DNA of 64,000 nucleotides. It comes from a phage. A program made the position numbers and the translations under genes. This document shows positions 2,183-61,380 of this stretch, piece after piece (position 1 is the first letter of the stretch; every line of letters begins with the position of its first letter). Below the pieces are notes generated by a model. That model was not told the origin of the DNA and did no database searches. It worked only from the letters and a program-made list of their open reading frames with translations. The stretch is from NCBI GenBank assembly GCA_024790105.1, contig GCA_024790105.1_3053.1. One strand, 5' to 3'.

Positions 2183-2263
2183 TCATTGGCGTCCGAAGAC
2201 GCCTTTAGTTTTAAGATTGTTACGATAGAACTGCATCACATGTTCGTTATGGAAATTACTCAT
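2183..2263 (-). CDS. stp: Stp peptide (26 aa)
   Basis: translation [26 protein letters not shown] recognised as T4 Stp; ATG overlaps ndd stop (TAATG). Confidence 0.85.
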
Positions 2264-4626: not shown

Positions 4627-4650
4627 TAAAACAAAAGGGCCGAAGCCCTT
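4627..4650 (-). terminator. C(UUCG)G hairpin terminator
   Basis: AAGGGC-cgaa-GCCCTT hairpin 4635-4650 plus U-rich tract on minus strand. Confidence 0.5.
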
Positions 4651-4848: not shown

Positions 4849-4876
4849 AATTTTCCTTAGTTAAGGGCCGAAGCCC

Positions 4877-5815
4877 TTATTTAAATTGTTCAGTAACGTC
4901 TTCAATTACTTCGTATTGGCAGGTACGCATTTTAGCGTCGTTGTAATCAATCGGAATTGATACTACATCACGAGGATGAACTTTAACTTTTACAACTCGG
5001 CTGGTTGAACCACCGAAGTGACGAATATAAGATTTAGAACACACATGCAGACCACGAGAACAAGTTTGTGTATCATCGTCATTTACACGAGTACGTGGCA
5101 TTTTAACTACTTTACCAGGACTGTTATCAAAGGTATTTGAGTGACAGTCAAAGTAATTGCTACGAACTACTTTCCAAGCATAGAAGTAACCATCTTCTGT
5201 AATTTCAATATCGTTTGCTACCAAGAAATCAAAAAGTCGAGATACCGCTTTCTGGCTTGGGTTTTCCAGCAGATTTTCCAAGAACGGAAAATAAAATTCA
5301 AAGTTTTCACCTTTTTCCATCGAATCGAGAATACGATCAACTAAACCAGACCGCAATTCAATATTTTGATAGAATAAGCTTCCACCTTCAATTCGAACAT
5401 CGCCGGAAATATATTTTTCAACAGCGCGACGAACGTTAATTTTTTGTGCCGCTTCTTCCAACTTATCTGCTACAAGCAGATTAAGAATTTCCTGGAAGTT
5501 TGAATGAGTATTAGGAGTTGCGTTATAAGTTACACCGTCAACAGTAATTGAAATGAATTTTTTAGATGCATTCCAAATAATGTCAGATTTAGCAACTGGA
5601 GCAATAACTGCATCGCTATTAACTTTAACTGTAATATCACCGCTAATAGTAACTTTAGAGCGTTTAGCTTCTTCAGAATTTTTCAAAACACGACGGATTG
5701 TGTCAACCGATACACCTTGCCAATCAGCCAATTCCTGTTGGGTGTAATTACCACTTGAATACAGCTTAACAATTTCAGCTTGTTCGTTTTTGGTCAGGCA
5801 TTTAATATTGTACAT
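4877..5815 (-). CDS. rIIB: rIIB membrane-associated protein
   Basis: 312-aa ORF, ATG 5815 with AAGGAAAATT SD; immediately downstream of rIIA. Confidence 0.95.
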   Translation of the reverse strand: MYNIKCLTKNEQAEIVKLYSSGNYTQQELADWQGVSVDTIRRVLKNSEEAKRSKVTISGDITVKVNSDAVIAPVAKSDIIWNASKKFISITVDGVTYNATPNTHSNFQEILNLLVADKLEEAAQKINVRRAVEKYISGDVRIEGGSLFYQNIELRSGLVDRILDSMEKGENFEFYFPFLENLLENPSQKAVSRLFDFLVANDIEITEDGYFYAWKVVRSNYFDCHSNTFDNSPGKVVKMPRTRVNDDDTQTCSRGLHVCSKSYIRHFGGSTSRVVKVKVHPRDVVSIPIDYNDAKMRTCQYEVIEDVTEQFK

Positions 5816-8273: not shown

Positions 8274-8805
8274 TACTGGCTCATCCATTCTTTACGAAGG
8301 TCAGCATTATCTCCCATGAGCATTTCAAAAAGCTCTTTCCAGTTCTCAGGAAGTTTAACAACATCATATACTGGGTTTTGAATCATTTCTTTATATTCAT
8401 CCCGCTGAAGTGAGCCCAATCCCTTGATGTATCGAATACTATGTTTAGGTAGAGCATCTTTAGCACTCTCATATTCAGCGACTGTATAAAACCATTCTTG
8501 TTTTTTACCTACCTGAGCGATGATTACAGGAGTTTTGACGAAGCGAATTCTTCCTTGTTCAAACAGTTCTGGCCAATTACTAAAAAATCCGAGCAGAGAA
8601 GGATAAATAGAACCTAATCCAATAATCTCTTAATTATGAGGTATTTCTATAGATAGCCCGAAGGCTATCCATCGTGATCTGCGTCTGTCATAATAGCGAC
8701 ATTCGCATAGTTCATTGAAGAGGATTTAATAGAACGACGAACATTGTTCTGCAATTTATATTTTTTCATATCAACGCTAGAAGAATCAATTTTTACAAAT
8801 TTCAT
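8273..8805 (-). CDS. 60: topoisomerase II small subunit gp60; join(8273..8617,8668..8805) with 50-nt translational bypass
   Basis: codons 1-46 (MKFVKIDSSS...TDADHDG) end at take-off GGA 8670-8668 followed by UAG; decoding resumes at UUA 8617-8615 after landing GGA 8620-8618; downstream 345-nt segment has no start codon and encodes LGSIYPSLLGFFSNWPELFEQGRIRFVKTP... Confidence 0.9.
8618..8667 (-). other. 50-nt untranslated coding gap (ribosomal hop) inside gene 60
   Basis: sequence GGA UAG CCU UCG GGC UAU CUA UAG AAA UAC CUC AUA AUU AAG AGA UUA UUG GA read directly on minus strand; take-off hairpin with UUCG loop. Confidence 0.9.
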
Positions 8806-11132: not shown

Positions 11133-11201
11133 CACTTATCCTCGTTTGGTTTCGGGAATATTATACTCCGGTAGTCATAAAGCTAAAGGCCCGAAGGCCT
11201 T

Positions 11202-11462
11202 TTATTTAAAGCGAATAGTCGAATCCTTGAAGAATAGTCCAGAACATACTGTTCCTTCTACTTTCTGTCCAGTAGGTCCAATAGCACGAAATCCAGTATG
11301 CTGGAAATCATTTTCAGAGCAACCGAACCAATTATATCCAGTGATTTCAATATTAGTAAAACCACTTGAAGACAAAACTTTGGTTGCATTATCAGCATCA
11401 GTACATCCTATTAAAGACACTGCTAATACTAATGCTGCAATAGAACGATTAATATATTTCAT
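11202..11462 (-). CDS. putative lipoprotein (86 aa)
   Basis: signal peptide with lipobox LIGC; ATG 11462 with AAAGGG SD. Confidence 0.6.
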   Translation of the reverse strand: MKYINRSIAALVLAVSLIGCTDADNATKVLSSSGFTNIEITGYNWFGCSENDFQHTGFRAIGPTGQKVEGTVCSGLFFKDSTIRFK

Positions 11463-21370: not shown

Positions 21371-21401
21371 AAATGAAAAAAGGACTCCCGAAGGAGTCCT
21401 T
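21371..21401 (-). terminator. rho-independent terminator downstream of soc
   Basis: AAGGACTCC-cgaa-GGAGTCCTT hairpin then U-run on minus strand. Confidence 0.65.
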
Positions 21402-24071: not shown

Positions 24072-24272
24072 ATGGTACAAAAATTAATGGCACTTGTTAA
24101 TGCCATCAAAGGTAATAAAAAGCGTATAGCTTTTACTATTTCTGCTATGATAGGAATTTTACTTTGGAATTTTGTTTTATCGCCAGTTGCTATTGCTCAT
24201 GGCGTTAGTATTCCAGTAGTTACTCTTGATACATTCGTAGATTTAGCATTTGCTTTAGTTGGGTTAATTTAA
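24072..24272 (+). CDS. small membrane protein (66 aa) on plus strand
   Basis: strong SD AAGGAGGA 6 nt before ATG 24072; hydrophobic; convergent with gene 61. Confidence 0.5.
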   Translation: MVQKLMALVNAIKGNKKRIAFTISAMIGILLWNFVLSPVAIAHGVSIPVVTLDTFVDLAFALVGLI

Positions 24273-28126: not shown

Positions 28127-28471
28127 TTAAAAGAATTTAAACTTTTTCTTTGACCTTTTATTAAATGCATCTTGTAGTTGCATTGTAATACATTTTTCTA
28201 CATGAGGAGCTAACTCAGCTTTTCTTTCTTGGTCAAGAACAGCAAAGTCCATTACGACTTTTCCATCAACCCAATCTAATTTTGTCACATACACAATGTG
28301 TGTAGAACCATCTTCTAGTTTAATGACAATCTCCTGGATAACATTTTCCATGGCAGATTTAATTATCTTAAGAGATTCATTAAAAAGACGTTCTTTTCTT
28401 TCTTCTTCCCCCTCCGAAGAGGGGGATTCATCGATAATTTCTAGATCTAAGTCTAAATCATCTTTATTCAT
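28127..28471 (-). CDS. 40: gp40-position protein (114 aa)
   Basis: ATG 28471 with GGAAG SD; ORF-track start is GTG. Confidence 0.6.
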   Translation of the reverse strand: MNKDDLDLDLEIIDESPSSEGEEERKERLFNESLKIIKSAMENVIQEIVIKLEDGSTHIVYVTKLDWVDGKVVMDFAVLDQERKAELAPHVEKCITMQLQDAFNKRSKKKFKFF

Positions 28472-29639
28472 TAAATTCTTCCATATCACTTAACTGTTCG
28501 AGGTCAGTTTCTAAATCAGCTGCTGATTTACTTTTACTTTCTGGGGATTTAAATTTTTCAACCTTTGAGTTAATCAATTCATCAACTTCAGCTTCAACAA
28601 TTTCATTACTATCAATAGCACCTAACTGATAAGCACGTTTAATAGCATCTCGGAATGGTTGATGCTTAAATAAAGGACCCCAGAATGTAGTGCAGTTAGT
28701 ATCTTTTGCACGCCAAGATTTTTCTTCGCGAATCATCTCGCCGGTTTCTTCATCAAGAAATTCACGAGCATACCAGCCATTTTTAGGTTTTACCACGAAT
28801 CCTAATTCTAGAGCCATATCTAACAATCCAGAATAAGGATCGATACCACCGTCAAATTTAACATCAATAAAGAATTTACTTTTTTCTTTAACGGTACGAG
28901 ATTTTTCTACATTTAGAACAAATTGATACCCCTGAAGATCAGAACCATCTTTAATCTGGCGCTTACCAATAATGAATACGGTATCAGCCGAATACATCGG
29001 TCCAGTACCACCTCCCATAACTGTTTTACTAAACATTTCTTGTGTTTCGTATGTATGATTAATAGCAATACATGGAATATTTTTAGTACTAAAATAGGGA
29101 GTTACGATACGAAATAAGCTTTTCATTGTTTTAGCTCTAGTCATATCACTAACAACTTTTTCATTTAAAGCATCTTCAGTTTCTTTCTTAGAAGCTAAGT
29201 TACCAAGTGAATCGATAAAAACGACTACCTTTTCGCCGCGTTCAATTGCATCCAATTGATTAACCATGTCAATACGTAATTGCTCAAGTGATTGAACCGG
29301 AGTATGAATTACTCGTTCTGGATCGACTCCCATAGACCGCAAATAAGCAGGAGTAATACCAAATTCACTATCATAAAACAAACATACTGCATCAGGATAT
29401 TGACGCATGTAAGATGACACCATTGTTAATCCAAAGTTTGATTTAAATGATTTTGATGGACCTGCCAAAATTAACAGACCAGATTGCATACCACCAGTAA
29501 TTTCACCAGAAAGTGCAATATTCATCATAGGAATTTTTGTTCGAACTACATCCTTTTCATTAAAGAATTTAGATGCTGTTAATTCTGCAGTCAATTTAGA
29601 AGTAGAAGCTTTAATCAAACGAGATTTTAAATCAGACAT
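28464..29639 (-). CDS. uvsX: UvsX recombinase (RecA-like)
   Basis: 391 aa; ATG 29639 with AAGG SD. Confidence 0.95.
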   Translation of the reverse strand: MSDLKSRLIKASTSKLTAELTASKFFNEKDVVRTKIPMMNIALSGEITGGMQSGLLILAGPSKSFKSNFGLTMVSSYMRQYPDAVCLFYDSEFGITPAYLRSMGVDPERVIHTPVQSLEQLRIDMVNQLDAIERGEKVVVFIDSLGNLASKKETEDALNEKVVSDMTRAKTMKSLFRIVTPYFSTKNIPCIAINHTYETQEMFSKTVMGGGTGPMYSADTVFIIGKRQIKDGSDLQGYQFVLNVEKSRTVKEKSKFFIDVKFDGGIDPYSGLLDMALELGFVVKPKNGWYAREFLDEETGEMIREEKSWRAKDTNCTTFWGPLFKHQPFRDAIKRAYQLGAIDSNEIVEAEVDELINSKVEKFKSPESKSKSAADLETDLEQLSDMEEFNE

Positions 29640-29647
29640 ATAATACC

Positions 29648-30313
29648 TTATAGTAGTGTTCTTGTTCCACGAAATACTTCGAGCATTCTTGCATAAGATT
29701 TATTTGGAAATCCAGCTTCAATTGCTAATTTTTTAAGCTTAATAGCACCGGGTTTTCCAGAGTTTTCCCATATTTCTTTAATCTTTTCAATGTTATCCCA
29801 CATTATTGGGTCACGTTTATGTGATGGTTTATTTCTATTATAACCATATGGATTATTAAGCAAAGCTTCTTTTCGTTTTGCTTTAGTTTCTTCTGACTGC
29901 TTTTTGCCTAGCTGGGCTTTCCGGCAAACATCACTAAATCCAAGATGTTTTGGTTTTCCTTTTTGAGCTTTTGAAATTTTTTCTTTGGTTTCTGATGAAA
30001 CTCTATAACCAATTCTTCTACCACCCTCTCCACCAATTTTTAAATTATAAGTCATAGGATCATTTACCACATCTATTGTTACTAATTCTCTTTCAGCATC
30101 ACGGGCTGATTTAAAATCTTTATAAAACCCAAGAATGCTTAAATTAAAATTTTTCTTACCATACTTTTTCTTGGCTTGTGCTAATAAAGTTCCTGATCCC
30201 ATATAACCATCATTTAAATCATCGGTTGAATGAGTTCCATAGTAAATTTTATTATTAACTAAATTAGTTATAACATAAGTATAATTATATTTCTTTTCTT
30301 TATGTCTTTTCAT
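29648..30313 (-). CDS. segA: GIY-YIG homing endonuclease SegA
   Basis: 221 aa from ATG 30313; YVITNLVNNKIYYGTHS GIY-YIG motif; between uvsX and glycosyltransferase. Confidence 0.8.
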   Translation of the reverse strand: MKRHKEKKYNYTYVITNLVNNKIYYGTHSTDDLNDGYMGSGTLLAQAKKKYGKKNFNLSILGFYKDFKSARDAERELVTIDVVNDPMTYNLKIGGEGGRRIGYRVSSETKEKISKAQKGKPKHLGFSDVCRKAQLGKKQSEETKAKRKEALLNNPYGYNRNKPSHKRDPIMWDNIEKIKEIWENSGKPGAIKLKKLAIEAGFPNKSYARMLEVFRGTRTLL

Positions 30314-30317
30314 GTCA

Positions 30318-31160
30318 TTAATCAACTGCTATTGGATGAATAGCATTAAACTTATGAAATGCTTCTGATTTTTCTTTACGCGAAACACACATGCGAAGAA
30401 CCTTTAATGGCTCGTCTTCTTCACCCAATGATTTTCGTTTTTCAATATTCGATGTTTTCCAACGAGCTTGCTCTGGAAACTCTCTATTGATTTGCTCAAG
30501 CGCTCTATTATGTTTAGAATTACTACGAATTGAACTACACCCACCGGGAGCCTGTGATTTTCCAGATACAACTAGATATTTGAACAAGGCCAAATGCGGA
30601 TAACCTTGATTAATTAAATTGAGAAATGCATACATATCTTCACATAAATCAATTTTTCCATACCCAATTTGTTCTGTCGTAAGTTTTCCGAGGTCATACC
30701 ATGTATTCGTGAATCCATATGAGTTTTCACGATAATTACCCCAAGATGAAGTAATTTTAAAAATTGGTAGACGAGCATGACCGTGATAATACCCGCAATC
30801 CATGGCATCTTCAACGTATTGAATTAATTCATAGAACTGTTCACGAGTTAATTGATTAATTTTATCTACACGCCGTTTATCGTCTCTCTTTCGTATTGAA
30901 CTCATACGAATAGTAGTATCATCATCAATCATCCAGATTCGTTGACCTGCATACATATCAGTAATTGCTTTACGAGTACCGGAAATTCCATTAACATCAT
31001 CAGGAATAGTTACAATTTTAGCTCTAGACCCATAAGCGTCATGATAAGCTTTTTCTTCATGTTCACGCACTACAATATGGGGTTCATAATCAGTCGGAAA
31101 CATATTAAGGGCAGAAACTGCCCCTACACGTTGATAGCTCGGAATTACGAATTGAATCAT
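30318..31160 (-). CDS. GT-A fold (family 2-like) glycosyltransferase at the beta-gt locus
   Basis: 280 aa from ATG 31160; VIPSYQR and IWMIDDD (DxD) motifs; does not resemble T4 beta-gt; ATGA overlap with gene 42. Confidence 0.7.
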   Translation of the reverse strand: MIQFVIPSYQRVGAVSALNMFPTDYEPHIVVREHEEKAYHDAYGSRAKIVTIPDDVNGISGTRKAITDMYAGQRIWMIDDDTTIRMSSIRKRDDKRRVDKINQLTREQFYELIQYVEDAMDCGYYHGHARLPIFKITSSWGNYRENSYGFTNTWYDLGKLTTEQIGYGKIDLCEDMYAFLNLINQGYPHLALFKYLVVSGKSQAPGGCSSIRSNSKHNRALEQINREFPEQARWKTSNIEKRKSLGEEDEPLKVLRMCVSRKEKSEAFHKFNAIHPIAVD

Positions 31161-32840: not shown

Positions 32841-32865
32841 ATGAAAAAGGGACCTGGAGGTCCCT
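32841..32865 (-). terminator. rho-independent terminator downstream of gene 43
   Basis: AGGGACC-tgga-GGTCCCT hairpin then U-run on minus strand. Confidence 0.6.
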
Positions 32866-35610: not shown

Positions 35611-35652
35611 CTTGATATATTATACTCCAAATAAGGGCCGAAGCCCCATTGC

Positions 35653-37570: not shown

Positions 37571-37595
37571 GTAAATTATAAAGGGCCGAAGCCCT
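37571..37595 (-). terminator. C(UUCG)G hairpin between genes 45 and 44
   Basis: AGGGC-cgaa-GCCCT hairpin with U-rich 3' tract on minus strand. Confidence 0.5.
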
Positions 37596-37598
37596 CTA

Positions 37599-38285
37599 TT
37601 AAAAATCGTGGGTAGAATCAGCTTCAAGAGCTACTACATAATTCGCGTGTTCACCTTCAAATTTAGCAGCGCCTTGTTTACCTTTTGCCCAAAGCAGAAG
37701 TTTATAATTTCCTGGTTGCATTTTCATATTTGCCATATTGATAATGAAATTAAATGTATTTTCACCATCATAATCACCAAGAGTCAAAGAATATTTAACA
37801 CGGGTAAGAGCAGAATCTTCTACTTTATTAAAACCGTTAATTACGATTTTACCTTCTTTTACCGTGATAGCAATTGTATCAATTTGCAGACCACGAGATA
37901 CACGCAATAGTTGTTGAAGGTCTTCAGCTTTAATTTCAGTAACAACAGATGCTACCGGGAATGGAATTGGTTTATTAGGAGCAACTACTGTACTCGGATC
38001 GGCTGCTGGCCAAAAAATTGTTGAACGAGCATCAGCAATTTTAATATTTCCATCTTCTGACTGGGAAATTTCTGCATCGTCATTAACTAGAGACAGAATA
38101 CCGAGAAAACCGTTCAAATCGTAAATTGCTACATCAAAATCAATAACGTCAGAAATATTTGCTTCCGCATAAGTTGTACCATTAACTGCGCGAGTCATAA
38201 TAAATTGACCAGATTTAAGCATAATGCCAGAGTTAATAGTAGCGAAATTTTTCAAAATATTCAGTGTGTCTTTAGATAATTTCAT
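37599..38285 (-). CDS. 45: sliding clamp gp45
   Basis: 228 aa; ATG 38285 with AGGAAATTGAA SD. Confidence 0.95.
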   Translation of the reverse strand: MKLSKDTLNILKNFATINSGIMLKSGQFIMTRAVNGTTYAEANISDVIDFDVAIYDLNGFLGILSLVNDDAEISQSEDGNIKIADARSTIFWPAADPSTVVAPNKPIPFPVASVVTEIKAEDLQQLLRVSRGLQIDTIAITVKEGKIVINGFNKVEDSALTRVKYSLTLGDYDGENTFNFIINMANMKMQPGNYKLLLWAKGKQGAAKFEGEHANYVVALEADSTHDF

Positions 38286-43805: not shown

Positions 43806-43828
43806 TATATCAAACTCTGTATAAAGCT
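43804..43828 (-). promoter_or_regulatory. MotA-box middle-promoter-like element
   Basis: minus strand aGCTTTAt then 12 nt then TATAAT. Confidence 0.4.
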
Positions 43829-43846
43829 AAAGGGCCGAAGCCCTTT
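43829..43846 (-). terminator. C(UUCG)G hairpin at a-gt stop
   Basis: AAAGGGC-cgaa-GCCCTTT overlapping a-gt stop codon. Confidence 0.5.
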
Positions 43847-45047
43847 ATTTTGTAATAATGTCAAACTGTTCTTTAAAGCAGAAGCTTGAATCTTGGTGCT
43901 GATACAAAAATTCATATGCTTTTTCTCGCTCGCGGTCATAAAGAGCTCGGTCAGATGACAGTTCTTTAATACGTTCAAATGTTGATTCCATGTCATTTTC
44001 ATCAAACCAAATGATACCGCTATCATGCGAGGTCAAAGGAGTATTATCAACACGGAATTTTAAATTTTCGCCAGTAGATTTCCAAAATACCGGAATTGTT
44101 CCACATGCACCAAGCTCGAGATGAGTATATTCTAAAGAACGTTGCAGATATTTTTTATCCAACTTACTCAACTGATAACCAAAACCGGATTTACTCATGC
44201 GTTCAAGCATTTCGCTATTTACATAACGGTCAAGAATTTGCGTTGGCAAATTAGGAGCAATTTTAATTTGGTCTACTTGATGAAGACGATAATACTCGTA
44301 TGGAATTCCCTTTTCTTTAATAGGAATGAACGCTGGAGAACGTTCCAGACCTTCCATAATAGTACTTAGTCCTGCAGGTTTAAGATGTTTTTCGTGAAAA
44401 TCAAACATCTGATAAAAGCCTTTCCATGTAGTAGTACGACCAATCCAACGGTTGATATTCATGTTAATTTCAGAAACATCTTTCCAATAGGTTGATCGAA
44501 CCTTCGCAATATCCATAGGAGGCTGGAAGTTATATACGGTCGGTGCTTCTTCAATATCATCAAACAGAGAAACTGTTTCTGGATACCATTCTTTCATTAA
44601 AACTTTATTAAAATCACCATTATCAGAATGACTAAAAATAACATCAGCTCGACGAACAGTTTCTTCTAATCCCAAATTTCGGCGCAAAGAAAGAGAAGAA
44701 TGGTCATGCTGATAAACTACAACACGAACCGAAGGTTTAATGTTATCAATAATTTTTTTATAGTTATTGATGGTGTCTTCTTCAACCGAAGTAGCAGGAA
44801 CTGAATTGATAATTAGAATATCACAATCATTTACCAGCTTAAGTGTTTTATCATATTCTTTTGCCAATAAAACCGGAATTGAAAATGATTTATAATCATG
44901 CGCGCAATTACGAGTAAATGATTTATCTTTAGCATAAACCAAAGTTACTTCATGACCATTTTTAATAAACCAATCACGTTGCTCGAGTGAGAATTTTGTT
45001 ACACCACAACCTTCAAGACCTCGAGCCAGAAAAATGCATACTTTCAT
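43845..45047 (-). CDS. a-gt: DNA alpha-glucosyltransferase
   Basis: 400 aa; ATG 45047 with GAGGATATTA SD; recognised sequence. Confidence 0.9.
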   Translation of the reverse strand: MKVCIFLARGLEGCGVTKFSLEQRDWFIKNGHEVTLVYAKDKSFTRNCAHDYKSFSIPVLLAKEYDKTLKLVNDCDILIINSVPATSVEEDTINNYKKIIDNIKPSVRVVVYQHDHSSLSLRRNLGLEETVRRADVIFSHSDNGDFNKVLMKEWYPETVSLFDDIEEAPTVYNFQPPMDIAKVRSTYWKDVSEINMNINRWIGRTTTWKGFYQMFDFHEKHLKPAGLSTIMEGLERSPAFIPIKEKGIPYEYYRLHQVDQIKIAPNLPTQILDRYVNSEMLERMSKSGFGYQLSKLDKKYLQRSLEYTHLELGACGTIPVFWKSTGENLKFRVDNTPLTSHDSGIIWFDENDMESTFERIKELSSDRALYDREREKAYEFLYQHQDSSFCFKEQFDIITK

Positions 45048-45077
45048 TTAATATCCTCATTGTTTTGGTTTATTTTA

Positions 45078-45118
45078 CCAAAAAAATTATAAAGCAATAT
45101 AGGAGCCGAAGCTCCTAT
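45078..45118 (-). terminator. rho-independent terminator
   Basis: ATAGGAGC-cgaa-GCTCCTAT hairpin followed by U-run on minus strand. Confidence 0.55.
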
Positions 45119-47460: not shown

Positions 47461-47485
47461 TTATCCAAAAAGGGCCGAAGCCCTT
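47461..47485 (-). terminator. C(UUCG)G hairpin terminator
   Basis: AAAGGGC-cgaa-GCCCTT plus U-run on minus strand. Confidence 0.55.
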
Positions 47486-50703: not shown

Positions 50704-53566
50704 CTATGCATGTTTTACTCGTTTTACCATTTCTTTCATTTTACCTAAATTCCATGGGACAACGCTAGGAGTTCCAAGATATCCGCATGTTCTTCTTATT
50801 GTGTTCATCTTTTTAGGATCAGTTTCTCCACAAATAGAACAAACAAATCCGTTTTCAGTAGGAGTCATTTCATGGGTACTTCCACATGTAAAACATTTAT
50901 CTACTGGCATGTTAACACCAAAATAATCTAAATGTTGTACAGCATAATCCCATACAGCCTCAAGACCTTTTAGGTTATTTTTCATATCAGGAAGTTCAAC
51001 ATAAGAAATGTGACCACCTGTCGCAATGAAATGATATGGCGCTTCACGAGAAATCTTTTCAAACGGAGTAATATTTTCTTCTACTGAAACATGGAAACTG
51101 TTAGTGTACCAGCCTTTATCGGTAACATCCTTTACACTTCCATATTTTTCTGTATCAAGTTTACAGAAGCGATAACAAAGGTTTTCAGCAGGAGTCGAAT
51201 ATAAACTAAAAGCAAATCCAGTTCTTTCAGTCCACTGTTTAAGATGAGCATTCATTTTAGTTAAAATTTCCTGTCCAATATCACGACCGACAAGAATATT
51301 CAATTCATGAATACCAATGTATCCTAGGGACACTGAACTTCTACCATTTTTAAATAACTCAATTATATCGTCATCAGGTTTAAGACGAACCCCGAATGCA
51401 CCTTCTTGGTAAAGAATAGGAGCAACAGTCGCTTTAACTCCTTTTAAGGAACTAATTCTACACATCAAAGCTTCAAAACACAGATCCATTCGTTCATTGA
51501 ATAATTCAGTAAATTTCTGTTCATTGAACTGTGTTCCAATATAAGAATCTAACGCAATACGAGGAAGATTCAGTGTTACAACACCAAGATTATTACGTCC
51601 ATCAAGAATTTCATTACCAGTCGAATCTTTCCATACGCTCAAGAAACTACGGCAACCCATTGGAGAAACAGGAACAGATGAACCAGTGATAGCTTTATTG
51701 TTCTTAGCTGAAATAATATCAGGATACATCCTTTTGCTTGCACACTCTAGAGCAAGCTGTTTAATATCATAGTTCGGATCGTCTTTGTAAAGATTAACGC
51801 CTTCTTCGACGAACATAACAAGCTTAGGGAAAATAGGAGTTATCCCATCACGACCGAGACCTTTAATACGATTTTTCAGAATTGCTTTCTGAATCATTCG
51901 TTCAGTCCAGTCAGTTCCTGTACCAAATGTAATTGTTACAAAAGGTGTTTGTCCGTTTGAACTGAAAAGTGTATTTACTTCATCATTATATTCAGCATGA
52001 GTCGCAAATTCATGCCCGTTTATATGAAACGACAAAATTTGGATAGTCCATAGATATGCAACGTTCTTTTATAGTGCTAGGATGAAAATTTAGCGCTTTA
52101 GCTGCTTCTATATAAGACGTATACTTAATACCGTCAACAACCACATATTCAGGAACTTTATGAATAGTAGTCTTAATACTCAAAACAAGAGGATGAGTTT
52201 CGACTTCACTTTCAGTGCAATTTAAATATTCCGCTGCTTTTTTAAAACTTCTAAAAGTTTTATTTTTAAGCTTTATCGATACTTGTTTTTTACTTTTTCG
52301 ACTATTGATATTATTTTGCACATGTTCCTTAGATCTTCTGTTTTTAGCATAATATTCAGCCACAGAAGATTTTATATTGTTTTTATGAGATTCGGATAAC
52401 ACTTTACCCTTATGAGCATCTCTTAATTTTTGAATATGTTCTTCAGTATCCGGATGCTTATAAAACTTTTTACCGCCTATGGATTTATTTAAACATTTTT
52501 TGCTATAAAAATATTTACGTATGACCTCTTCTTCATGTTTTAATGCATCTTTATAACTATCAAATGTTTTTAAAATTATCCATTTAGTAGGTGTATCAGT
52601 TTTTAAGCGTTCATTTATATACTTAGATGACGTTGTGTAAGTTTTCCAGTTTGTGGGCTTGTTTTTAACTGTTCTAAATTTTTTATAACCGATATAAATG
52701 TCGCCATTAGAAAACTTAACTAAGTATGTAAATGCGTCTTTATCTTTTATTTTAGTACAACGTCTTTTTATCCATTTCATTGTTTCACCTCGTATTCATA
52801 AGATAATCTTATTTATACAAGATGACTGCTGCATGTCGCCATGCAGATTAGACTATATCTTCATCTTTCGATGCCGGCCGTTTCGAATAGCATTAGCTTC
52901 TATTCTACACCGCTACATTCATCACGGTTAGTCGTTAGGCATTTAGTTCAAAAGAACATTTAGCACGGGATTGTCTACTAGAGAGGTTCCCCGTTTAGAC
53001 CGGTTTTACATGAGCCTGAATTAAATTAACTCATACGCCTGGAATGCATCGTATACGTCTTTTTCTGTTTTAGATTGAGCATAATTCAACGCATCAGCGA
53101 TTTGCCATTTTTCTGCATCTTCAATATGTTTTGCATAGGTGCGTTTAACATAAGGAGAAAGTACTTTATCTACATTAGCAAAAGTCGTTCCGCCGTATTG
53201 GTGAGAAGCAACCTGTGCAGTAATTTGCGCCATAATTGCAGTAGCAACGCCAATTGATTTAGGAGTTTCAATCTGCGCATTACCAAGCTTAAATCCGTTC
53301 TCAAGCATTCCTTTTAAATCTACTAAACAGCAATTAGTAAAAGGAAGAGCAGGGGAATAATCAATATCGTGCACGTGAATAATTCCGCTTTCATGCGCTT
53401 TCATAATAAAAGACGGGACCATATTTTTGGCAATGTGTTTAGACACAATACCAGCCATAAGGTCCCGTTGAGTTGGAAAAACACGAGAATCTTTATTAGC
53501 ATTCTCGTTTAAAAGGTCTTTATTAGTTTTATGAATCAATCCTTCAATTTCTTTTTCAATTGTCAT
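50704..53566 (-). CDS. nrdD: anaerobic ribonucleotide reductase NrdD, interrupted by a group I intron; inferred join(50704..51983,53029..53566)
   Basis: exon 1 ORF from ATG 53566 and exon 2 ORF ending in glycyl-radical RRTCGYLG and Zn ribbon; splice coordinates inferred from U/G boundary rule assuming a 605-aa product. Confidence 0.8.
51984..53028 (-). mobile_element. group I intron (sunY/nrdD type) with 3'-located endonuclease ORF; boundaries approximate
   Basis: ribozyme core CUAAACGGGGAACCUCUCUAGUAGACAAUCCCGUGCUAAAU...AAAUGCCUAACGACUA...GAGAUAUAGUCU...CUGCAUGGCGACAUGCAGC read at 52781-53020. Confidence 0.7.
52010..52780 (-). CDS. intron-encoded GIY-YIG-type homing endonuclease (256 aa)
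   Basis: ATG 52780 with GAGGTGAAACA SD; TYLVKFSNGDIYIGY motif and NUMOD-like repeats. Confidence 0.75.
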   Translation of the reverse strand: MKWIKRRCTKIKDKDAFTYLVKFSNGDIYIGYKKFRTVKNKPTNWKTYTTSSKYINERLKTDTPTKWIILKTFDSYKDALKHEEEVIRKYFYSKKCLNKSIGGKKFYKHPDTEEHIQKLRDAHKGKVLSESHKNNIKSSVAEYYAKNRRSKEHVQNNINSRKSKKQVSIKLKNKTFRSFKKAAEYLNCTESEVETHPLVLSIKTTIHKVPEYVVVDGIKYTSYIEAAKALNFHPSTIKERCISMDYPNFVVSYKRA

Positions 53567-59070: not shown

Positions 59071-59112
59071 AAAAAATTTTTGAAATAAAAAGGGGGACCT
59101 CTAGGGCCCCCT
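59071..59112 (-). terminator. rho-independent terminator
   Basis: GGGGGACC/GGGCCCCC hairpin plus U-run on minus strand. Confidence 0.55.
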
Positions 59113-59120
59113 TTATGCTT

Positions 59121-59700: not shown

Positions 59701-59731
59701 TTGAAATAAAAAAGGGAGCCCGAAGGCTCCC
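59701..59731 (-). terminator. rho-independent terminator
   Basis: GGGAGCC-cgaa-GGCTCCC hairpin plus U-run on minus strand. Confidence 0.6.
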
Positions 59732-59733
59732 TA

Positions 59734-61353: not shown

Positions 61354-61380
61354 AATGAAAAAAGTCTCCCGAAGGAGACT
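61354..61380 (-). terminator. rho-independent terminator
   Basis: AGTCTCC-cgaa-GGAGACT hairpin plus U-run on minus strand. Confidence 0.6.

Follow-up and report, generated by a model that had tools for sequence, protein, structure and literature searches.

C(UUCG)G hairpins at reading-frame ends in a T4-like phage, and comparative evidence for a selected RNA stem-loop inside gene 40

The locus of main interest comprises two overlapping genes and a hairpin that lies within one of them, all in a window of 64,000 nucleotides, which is the whole stretch of phage DNA that was analysed (contig GCA_024790105.1_3053.1 of GenBank assembly GCA_024790105.1). The features are as follows.

28127..28471, minus strand: gene 40 (head vertex assembly chaperone, 114 aa), with a reading frame that is continuous through the hairpin
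28464..29639, minus strand: uvsX (RecA-like recombinase, 391 aa), with a stop codon (28464-28466) that runs into the start of gene 40
28407..28426, minus strand: gene 40 hairpin, UCCCCCUC-UUCG-GAGGGGGA, 8 bp, predicted at −16.7 kcal/mol

The arms of the gene 40 hairpin occupy 28407-28414 and 28419-28426, with the loop at 28415-28418, and together they encode the residues S-P-S-S-E-G-E (gene 40 codons 16-22). The start of gene 40 precedes the uvsX stop by 8 nt, and because the two genes overlap the hairpin is intragenic and yet begins only 37 nt past the uvsX stop. Among the hairpins found inside any ORF of the window, it is the most stable. An earlier note on this DNA had placed it at 28408-28427, which is the same object with a shift of 1 nt. 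The continuous frame rules out bypass or recoding at gene 40.

Gene names were transferred by BLAST from the annotated T4T record, where nearly every gene annotated in the matching regions is a minus-strand gene. Over a 5-kb stretch around the gene 40 hairpin, identity to Tequatrovirus genomes reaches 97.8%. T4 itself is 98% identical to this stretch but aligns with just 87% of it, because segA and b-gt of T4 are replaced in the window by a T6-type beta-glucosyl-HMC-alpha-glucosyltransferase and another endonuclease gene. Judged by these alignments, the window derives from a T4 relative (97-98% identity) within Tequatrovirus, and not from T4 itself.

The gene 40 hairpin is one of 14 minus-strand hairpins in the window that combine a GC-rich stem with C(UUCG)G closure, and the genes that flank or contain them are all minus-strand genes. 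The other members are listed here.

61363..61380, minus strand: UUCG hairpin, 4 nt past the rI.-1 stop; a U-tract follows, then early-promoter-like GTTTAC...TACTAT
59713..59732, minus strand: UUCG hairpin, 1 nt past the stop of an nrdC.11 homologue; a U-tract follows, then early-promoter-like sequence
47470..47485, minus strand: UUCG hairpin across the 55.3 stop; a short U run follows (UUUGGAUAA), and 55.2 begins 38 nt on
45099..45118, minus strand: UUCG hairpin across the a-gt.2 stop; MotA-box-like TTGCTTTA is next, and the U-tract is borderline
43828..43847, minus strand: UUCG hairpin across the a-gt stop; GCTTTA comes next, then 12 nt and TATAAT, and 47.1 begins 22 nt past the hairpin
37578..37599, minus strand: UUCG hairpin across the gene 45 stop; no U-tract, 30 nt ahead of gene 44
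35634..35647, minus strand: UUCG hairpin, 5 nt past the regA stop and 59 nt ahead of gene 43; the T4 stem is one pair longer
21380..21401, minus strand: UUCG hairpin, 6 nt past the soc stop; a U-tract follows, then early-promoter-like GTTTAC-N17-TATAAT
11185..11202, minus strand: UUCG hairpin across the 39.1 stop; GCTTTA comes next, then 13 nt and TATAAT, and gene 39 begins 52 nt past the hairpin
8649..8672, minus strand: gene 60 take-off stem-loop, AUGGAUAGCC-UUCG-GGCUAUCUAU, which contains the GGA take-off codon and UAG
4862..4879, minus strand: UUCG hairpin across the rIIB stop; no U-tract, with the denB.1 ATG 13 nt on
4635..4650, minus strand: UUCG hairpin, 3 nt past the denB.1 stop; a U-rich tail is next
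2188..2203, minus strand: UUCG hairpin within the final six codons of stp (26 aa, 2183-2263); the ac ATG is 12 nt on

All 14 have a four-base UUCG loop, a C-G closing pair and a Watson-Crick stem. This bears out the earlier note, which had described more than a dozen GC-rich UUCG hairpins on the minus strand, mostly at gene ends; 11 of the 14 are at stops, and every coordinate given in that note corresponds to a real UUCG hairpin, to within 1-4 nt. The hairpins at 4862-4879, 11185-11202 and 35634-35647 were absent from it. An extra intragenic UUCG candidate at 5009-5022 in rIIB was rejected as noise, being weak (−2.2 kcal/mol). An Rfam search of the whole window gave no hit at gathering thresholds, either for the UUCG hairpins or elsewhere.

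The abundance of this motif is far above what composition would give. A UUCG loop on a perfect stem of 6 bp or more occurs 12 times on the minus strand and never on the plus strand, while 200 dinucleotide-preserving shuffles gave a mean of 0.075 and a maximum of 2. The hexamer CTTCGG is found 39 times in the window against 11.8 expected. Of the 56 perfect hairpins that combine a 4-nt loop with a stem of 6 bp or more, 12 have UUCG and no other loop is shared by more than 3; likewise, UUCG is the loop of 14 of the 112 minus-strand hairpins with dG of −9 kcal/mol or below, where no other loop occurs more than twice. Among the perfect stems of at least 6 bp, it is always UUCG and never its complement CGAA that lies on the transcribed strand (12:0). 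The predicted dG of the UUCG hairpins ranges from −7.9 to −16.7 kcal/mol, although ViennaRNA includes a tabulated bonus for C(UUCG)G and these energies partly restate the known stability of the loop. All 14 hairpins are also present in T4T, identical or nearly so, and the soc hairpin (21380..21401) matches the T4 sequence exactly even though its flanks are only 73% identical.

The placement of the hairpins is equally regular. Eleven of the 14 overlap the upstream stop codon or sit at most 6 nt past it, the upstream genes being rI.-1, the nrdC.11 homologue, 55.3, a-gt.2, a-gt, 45, regA, soc, 39.1, rIIB and denB.1. Three copies depart from this: the one in gene 40 follows the uvsX stop by 37 nt, the one in stp takes up the final six codons, and the one in gene 60 contains UAG. 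All 14 thus sit at the end of an upstream reading frame. The earlier note had set apart some intragenic copies, and these do lie inside coding sequence; as a separate class they do not stand, for each of them sits at the end of an upstream reading frame. We consider this a point of some value.

The same note had taken the gene-end copies to be terminators. A consensus terminator scan of the transcribed strand flags the hairpins at 4635, 21380, 59713 and 61363, with 45099 as a borderline case, and for these the assignment holds. The others have no U-tract and it does not extend to them, so 'terminators' is too broad a label for the family because only about 5 of the 14 hairpins have a U-tract. 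The hairpins that lack one, namely the gene 40 copy and eight others, run instead into coding, Shine-Dalgarno or promoter-like sequence. At 45099, 43828 and 11185 there is a MotA-box-like GCTTTA downstream, followed 12-13 nt further on by a −10-like hexamer (TATAAT or TAAAAT). We read the family as very stable sense-strand stem-loops of early and middle mRNA. By these sequence features, about a third of the UUCG hairpins are predicted intrinsic terminators, often paired with a putative early promoter. The remainder, apart from the gene 60 take-off structure, are most likely intercistronic structures that protect or define RNA 3' ends.

Much of this is familiar. The UUCG tetraloop was first found in T4 mRNA, according to the passages that recount its discovery (PMC4371310; Tuerk et al. 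1988, PNAS 85:1364, cited in PMC3972237), and CC-UUCG-GG has been called 'recurrent in T4 hairpins', with roles as a terminator or in stabilising RNA (bioRxiv 10.1101/2022.08.31.505936). As far as those passages describe the T4 C(UUCG)G mRNA hairpins, the family in our window resembles them in motif, lineage, strand and mostly intercistronic placement, and nothing essential differs, as would be expected of a T4 relative with 97-98% identity. The stem-loop at 8649-8672 is the gene 60 take-off element (PMC5462505; bioRxiv 10.1101/2022.08.31.505936), with its GGA codon, UAG and CC-UUCG-GG tip; it is annotated as a misc_feature in T4T and is a translational bypass element, and in our copy the landing GGA closes a 50-nt gap. 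The gene 40 hairpin is unlike it in that it has neither a take-off/landing codon pair nor a stop, and the protein downstream of it is conserved. The hairpins at 61363, 59713 and 21380 appear, from their U-tract followed by an early-promoter-like GTTTAC...TATAAT, to resemble PeSL cassettes (Arbiol et al. 2010, PMC2839356; Comeau et al. 2014, PMC4122927). In contrast to these cassettes, the gene 40 hairpin is not followed by any promoter-like sequence that we could find, and it lies in a conserved block of core genes and not in a hyperplastic region. In short, the CUUCGG hairpin is a textbook motif discovered in this very lineage, and the UUCG family, the gene 60 element and the terminator/promoter cassettes offer nothing new in kind. 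The gene 40 stem-loop and an associated 3' end are also in the literature, if we identify the published structure correctly.

With intrinsic terminators the gene 40 hairpin shares the character of a GC-rich hairpin at a gene end. However, where four to five of the 14 family members have a U-tract, the gene 40 copy has none: the bases that follow are AGAAGAAAGAAA, with no T in the next 12, and the sequence runs on as coding sequence. The terminator scan did not flag this hairpin on either strand. An antisense terminator on the plus strand of the same palindrome was also ruled out, as the scan left it unflagged and no U-tract follows it there.

A hairpin of −12.5 to −20 kcal/mol is found 29-61 nt past the uvsX stop in eight genera (Tequatro-, Mosig-, Karam-, Gelderland-, Jiaoda-, Marfa-, Gapriver- and Dhakavirus), with loops of UUCG, UCAG, GGAA, GAAG, UAAG or CUAGU and with stems that differ as well. 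Forms that depart from the one in our window, together with those of three more distant genera, are these.

Gelderlandvirus, inside gene 40: CCCCCUC-UCAG-GAGGGGG
Jiaodavirus, inside gene 40: UCUCCCUC-GGAA-GAGGGAGA
Marfavirus, inside gene 40, with the register shifted by one base: CUCCCCUU-GAAG-AAGGGGAG
Gaprivervirus, inside gene 40, with the arms swapped: GCGGAGGGAGC-UAAG-GCUCCUUCUGU
Dhakavirus, inside gene 40, with the arms swapped: GAGGGUC-CUAGU-GACCCUC
Krisch-, Pseudoteven- and Ishigurovirus, intergenic, 5-11 nt past the upstream stop: different stems

In the last three genera, gene 40 is shorter, lies downstream of the hairpin and lacks the peptide motif. Across these loci, 9.4% of other 170-nt segments reach −13.5 kcal/mol, compared to 10 of 13 at the site itself, although the Dhaka-, Krisch- and Ishigurovirus hairpins are each within the background range. 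No comparable hairpin was found at this site in the two Acinetobacter phages examined. The sequence diversity available for these comparisons came from GenBank phages, among which 1153 records contain a gp40 relative, and scans of metagenomes and IMG/VR added almost none.

The passages of PMC12152347, a 2025 paper from the Hinton laboratory, that deal with the 358 nt upstream of T4 gene 41 cite Hinton 1989 and report that in this region an RNA 3' end seen in vivo directly follows a stem-loop. They also state that this 3' end is more abundant in rho(nusD) hosts. According to the same passages, the 358-nt region had the largest stability effect on a downstream reporter, and GoF(D25Y) causes a post-transcriptional rise in expression from it through a longer RNA half-life. 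A review argues that the effect of rho(nusD) is one of RNA protection and decay and not of extra termination (PMC2988021). The 358-nt interval begins where uvsX stops and gene 40 starts, and it ends at the start of gene 41. From the gene 41 start to −358 there is a single hairpin with dG of −9 kcal/mol or below, the gene 40 hairpin, and it dominates the predicted fold. Because it is the only hairpin of that stability in the interval, we infer that the published stem-loop is the gene 40 hairpin. As described in those passages, the stem-loop of Hinton 1989 (J Biol Chem 264:14432, 14440) and Kim et al. 2025 (PMC12152347) would then share with ours the same 358-nt interval and a 3' end immediately downstream, and would link it to gene 41 mRNA levels, rho(nusD) and goF. 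The suggestion in the earlier note that the gene 40 copy may act in RNA processing or stability fits such a 3' end beside a stem-loop. The cross-genus conservation of the hairpin, its construction from rare codons and its relocation from an intergenic to an intragenic position go beyond what is said in the passages of PMC12152347 on this stem-loop. A review of post-transcriptional control in T4 makes no mention of uvsX, gene 40 or UUCG, and we found no genome-wide map of T4 RNA 3' ends in the literature.

Intercistronic 3'-stabiliser hairpins block 3'-to-5' exonucleases, as do, for example, the REP elements between malE and malF in E. coli. By analogy, the gene 40 hairpin would behave like such a stabiliser, as it is stable, lies distal to the abundantly needed uvsX, lacks a U-tract and probably has an RNA 3' end at its foot. 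It differs from REP elements in being embedded in coding sequence, and it is not a repeated extragenic element. We think it probable, though by no means assured, that the family is the classic T-even one and that its gene 40 copy is a 3' hairpin of uvsX, selected as RNA and likely to act as an exonuclease barrier. Transcripts that are terminated farther downstream (e.g. by Rho) or cut there would be trimmed 3' to 5' by host exonucleases up to the gene 40 hairpin. The outcome would be a stable uvsX message ending just past the stem, and a smaller share of RNA carrying genes 40 and 41. The published 3' end would in that case arise from exonuclease blockage and not from termination at the hairpin. 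We favour this reading because the hairpin has no U-tract and because the rho(nusD) effect has been argued to be one of protection and decay (PMC2988021). The placement of the hairpin also fits a barrier, at 37 nt past the uvsX stop, with a predicted −16.7 kcal/mol and no terminator features. Ribosomes translating gene 40 must melt the hairpin, and a barrier role needs the RNA to be untranslated there.

The rival that survives best holds that the hairpin is a transcriptional attenuator. RNA polymerase would pause or terminate there, whether or not Rho or NusA takes part, and this would directly set how much of genes 40 and 41 is transcribed relative to uvsX. A 3' end just past the stem-loop that becomes commoner in rho(nusD) hosts is compatible with this, since more of this end in rho mutants could also mean termination or pausing at the hairpin, and goF mutants were first read as antitermination mutants (PMC2988021). 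In the relatives, the Krischvirus intergenic hairpin is followed by UUUUCAU, and the Pseudotevenvirus one is annotated as a terminator. However, our hairpin has no T in the next 12 bases and was passed over by the terminator scan, and the action of GoF(D25Y), as presented in PMC12152347, is post-transcriptional and proceeds through RNA half-life. T4 is also rescued on these rho alleles by Rop, which binds RNA but is no antiterminator, and in vitro the mutant Rho proteins showed no extra termination (both points from PMC2988021 and the relevant passages of PMC12152347). Taken together, this leaves attenuation as an unlikely explanation, if the first to be considered after exonuclease blockage.

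Lower again, and in our estimation distinctly improbable, is a role in translation, in which the hairpin slows ribosomes early in gene 40 or modulates uvsX-40 coupling or gp40 output, or a role as a 5' stem-loop that, following a cut upstream, stabilises the 40-41 message. The hairpin lies 45 nt into gene 40, just past where an initiating ribosome would be, and the same motif acts on the ribosome in gene 60; that the 358-nt region had the largest effect on reporter stability, as given in the passages cited above, also speaks for such roles. On the other hand, the nascent-peptide, stop-codon and landing-site signals of the gene 60 type are absent and the frame is continuous, and we found no published 5' end at the gene 40 hairpin. 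Because the hairpin is outside and upstream of gene 40 in the three distant genera, a role that needs it to be translated is not conserved.

On whether the hairpin is maintained as an RNA structure, the coding sequence itself is informative. The motif S-P-S-x-E-G-E is self-complementary at the first and second codon positions, and about 7% of its synonymous codings yield an 8-bp stem by chance. The hairpin could in principle be a by-product of this acidic gp40 motif ([STA]-P-S-x-E-G-E), with no RNA function, and the P, E, G and E are indeed invariant in nine aligned proteins. Against this, the stretch is spelled with the rarest, GC-rich codons: in this phage CCC has a share of 3.1% among the Pro codons, TCC and TCG have 4.5% and 5.4% among those for Ser, GGG has 5.7% for Gly and GAG has 15% for Glu. 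With the peptide and the phage codon usage held fixed, a dG as low as that observed has a probability of 2.9e-6. The synonymous sites are moreover frozen or compensating. When 23 distinct gene 40 sequences are aligned by codon, two of the stem pairs join one third position to another, and these are C:G throughout except for double switches to U:A (CCU/GAA in Mosigvirus and UCU/GGA in Jiaodavirus), whereas other invariant gp40 residues use 2-6 synonymous codons in the same sequences. Among 13 distinct sequences, the inner 7 pairs are always paired, 2 pairs change on both sides and there is no one-sided break. The covariation score is 0.135 compared to 0.067 in shuffles, with 0 of 500 shuffles reaching it, although the signal comes from two events among 13 related sequences and similar scores are obtained with slide controls at +2 and +3. 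Finally, the swapped arms of Gapriver- and Dhakavirus keep a hairpin with a different peptide (EG...PS in place of PS...EG), the Marfavirus register is shifted, and the three genera with the hairpin outside gene 40 have a gp40 that lacks the motif. We therefore regard a peptide by-product as very improbable.

A DNA-level element (a cruciform, a nuclease or recombination site, or a replication signal) is scarcely credible either, despite the 8-bp palindrome being equally perfect in DNA and despite hairpin/promoter cassettes being thought to mediate recombination in T4-like genomes (PMC2839356, PMC4122927), because the loops are sense-oriented (12:0) and because the Gaprivervirus stem contains three G:U pairs that become C-A mismatches on the other strand and could form neither there nor in a DNA cruciform, and the loops of relatives include the RNA-stabilising GNRA type (GGAA).

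On comparative grounds, then, the gene 40 hairpin appears to be an RNA structure under selection, with the gp40 peptide largely a passenger. This view follows from the rare codons, the frozen or compensating synonymous sites, the persistence across genera and the strand specificity. What we add to the known T4 hairpins is a modest refinement, namely this comparative evidence for an RNA structure in gene 40 that coding sequence has overprinted. It is a case in which an RNA structure constrains a protein-coding stretch, as argued from the rare codons, the compensating changes, the arms that are swapped in some relatives and the counterpart that is intergenic in distant genera.

We tentatively suggest a further step, which is possible but which we would not wager on, namely that an N-terminal extension of gene 40 grew over an older intergenic hairpin, that the RNA dictates seven residues of the protein, and that the result is a translation-gated switch. 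Seven gp40 residues ([STA]PSxEGE, or EG..PS if the arms are swapped) would then be set by RNA structure and not by protein function. Ribosomes on gene 40 would melt the hairpin and the RNA would survive into gene 41, while untranslated RNA would be trimmed back to the stable uvsX message. If this were true, the old rho(nusD)/goF puzzle over gene 41 mRNA would be tied to a defined structure. The gene 40 hairpin is in any case a concrete, mutable target for studying how the mRNA of gene 41 (helicase) depends on Rho, GoF and RNA decay.

As a minor observation, the 3' arm of the hairpin includes the sequence GGAG, a candidate RegB cleavage site. It is absent in Mosigvirus L010/L022 and Dhakavirus Bp7 and present in most variants, and in the gene 40 hairpin it lies in the stem.

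Some of the C(UUCG)G hairpins in the window adjoin promoter-like sequence, and these fall into two arrangements.

UUCG hairpins next to promoter-like sequence
61363-61380 and about 60 nt downstream, minus strand: hairpin with U-tract, then early-promoter-like GTTTAC-N17-TATAAT
59713-59732 and about 60 nt downstream, minus strand: hairpin with U-tract, then early-promoter-like GTTTAC-N17-TATAAT
21380-21401 and about 60 nt downstream, minus strand: hairpin with U-tract, then early-promoter-like GTTTAC-N17-TATAAT
45099-45118, minus strand: hairpin, no U-tract; MotA-box-like (T)GCTTTA directly 3', TAAAAT -10-like hexamer
43828-43847, minus strand: hairpin, no U-tract; MotA-box-like (T)GCTTTA directly 3', TATAAT -10-like hexamer
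11185-11202, minus strand: hairpin, no U-tract; MotA-box-like (T)GCTTTA directly 3', TATAAT -10-like hexamer

Judged by sequence, the hairpin-promoter units at 61363, 59713 and 21380 appear similar to PeSLs, the published terminator/early-promoter cassettes of T4-like phages (PMC2839356, PMC4122927). The soc-distal member of this set (21380-21401) matches T4 at every base, in a surrounding 454-nt alignment of only 73% identity. For the units at 45099, 43828 and 11185, the 40 nt downstream of each hairpin were inspected, and the -10-like hexamer was found to lie 12-13 nt 3' of the MotA-box-like element. From their motifs, these three look like a hairpin adjoining a middle promoter.

The terminator scan also flagged terminator-like signals on the plus strand at 2188-2203, 4635-4650, 4862-4879, 43828-43847, 59713-59732 and 61363-61380, which arise because the minus-strand 5' flank of each palindrome is A-rich. 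These six palindromes could provide an additional stop for antisense transcription.

Strong terminator-like hairpins with loops other than UUCG are also seen on the minus strand, at 379-400, 59089-59114, 32848-32865 and 24084-24109. One of these, AGGGAGAGC-CUCG-GCUCUCCCU followed by a U-tract, exceeds every other hairpin of the window in stability, at a predicted -18.6 kcal/mol; another lies directly 3' of gene 43.

In the Acinetobacter T4-like phages Melin and ZZ1, gene 40 lies directly 3' of the upstream gene. No strong hairpin was found in the first gene 40 codons of Melin (locus L029, 571-602) or ZZ1 (locus L030, 550-700), where the best local structures reach -6.4 and -5.9 kcal/mol, respectively.

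The window departs from T4 at about 29650-31160 and 45050-45100. The positions of T4 segA and b-gt are taken by a segB-like endonuclease ORF together with a beta-glucosyl-HMC-alpha-glucosyltransferase of the T6 type and, unlike in T4, mobB is absent upstream of a-gt. A scan of positions 1-64000 against Rfam at the gathering threshold gave zero matches. Despite this, a 256-aa ORF at 52010-52780 corresponds in size and position to I-TevII, which in T4 sits within the nrdD group I intron.
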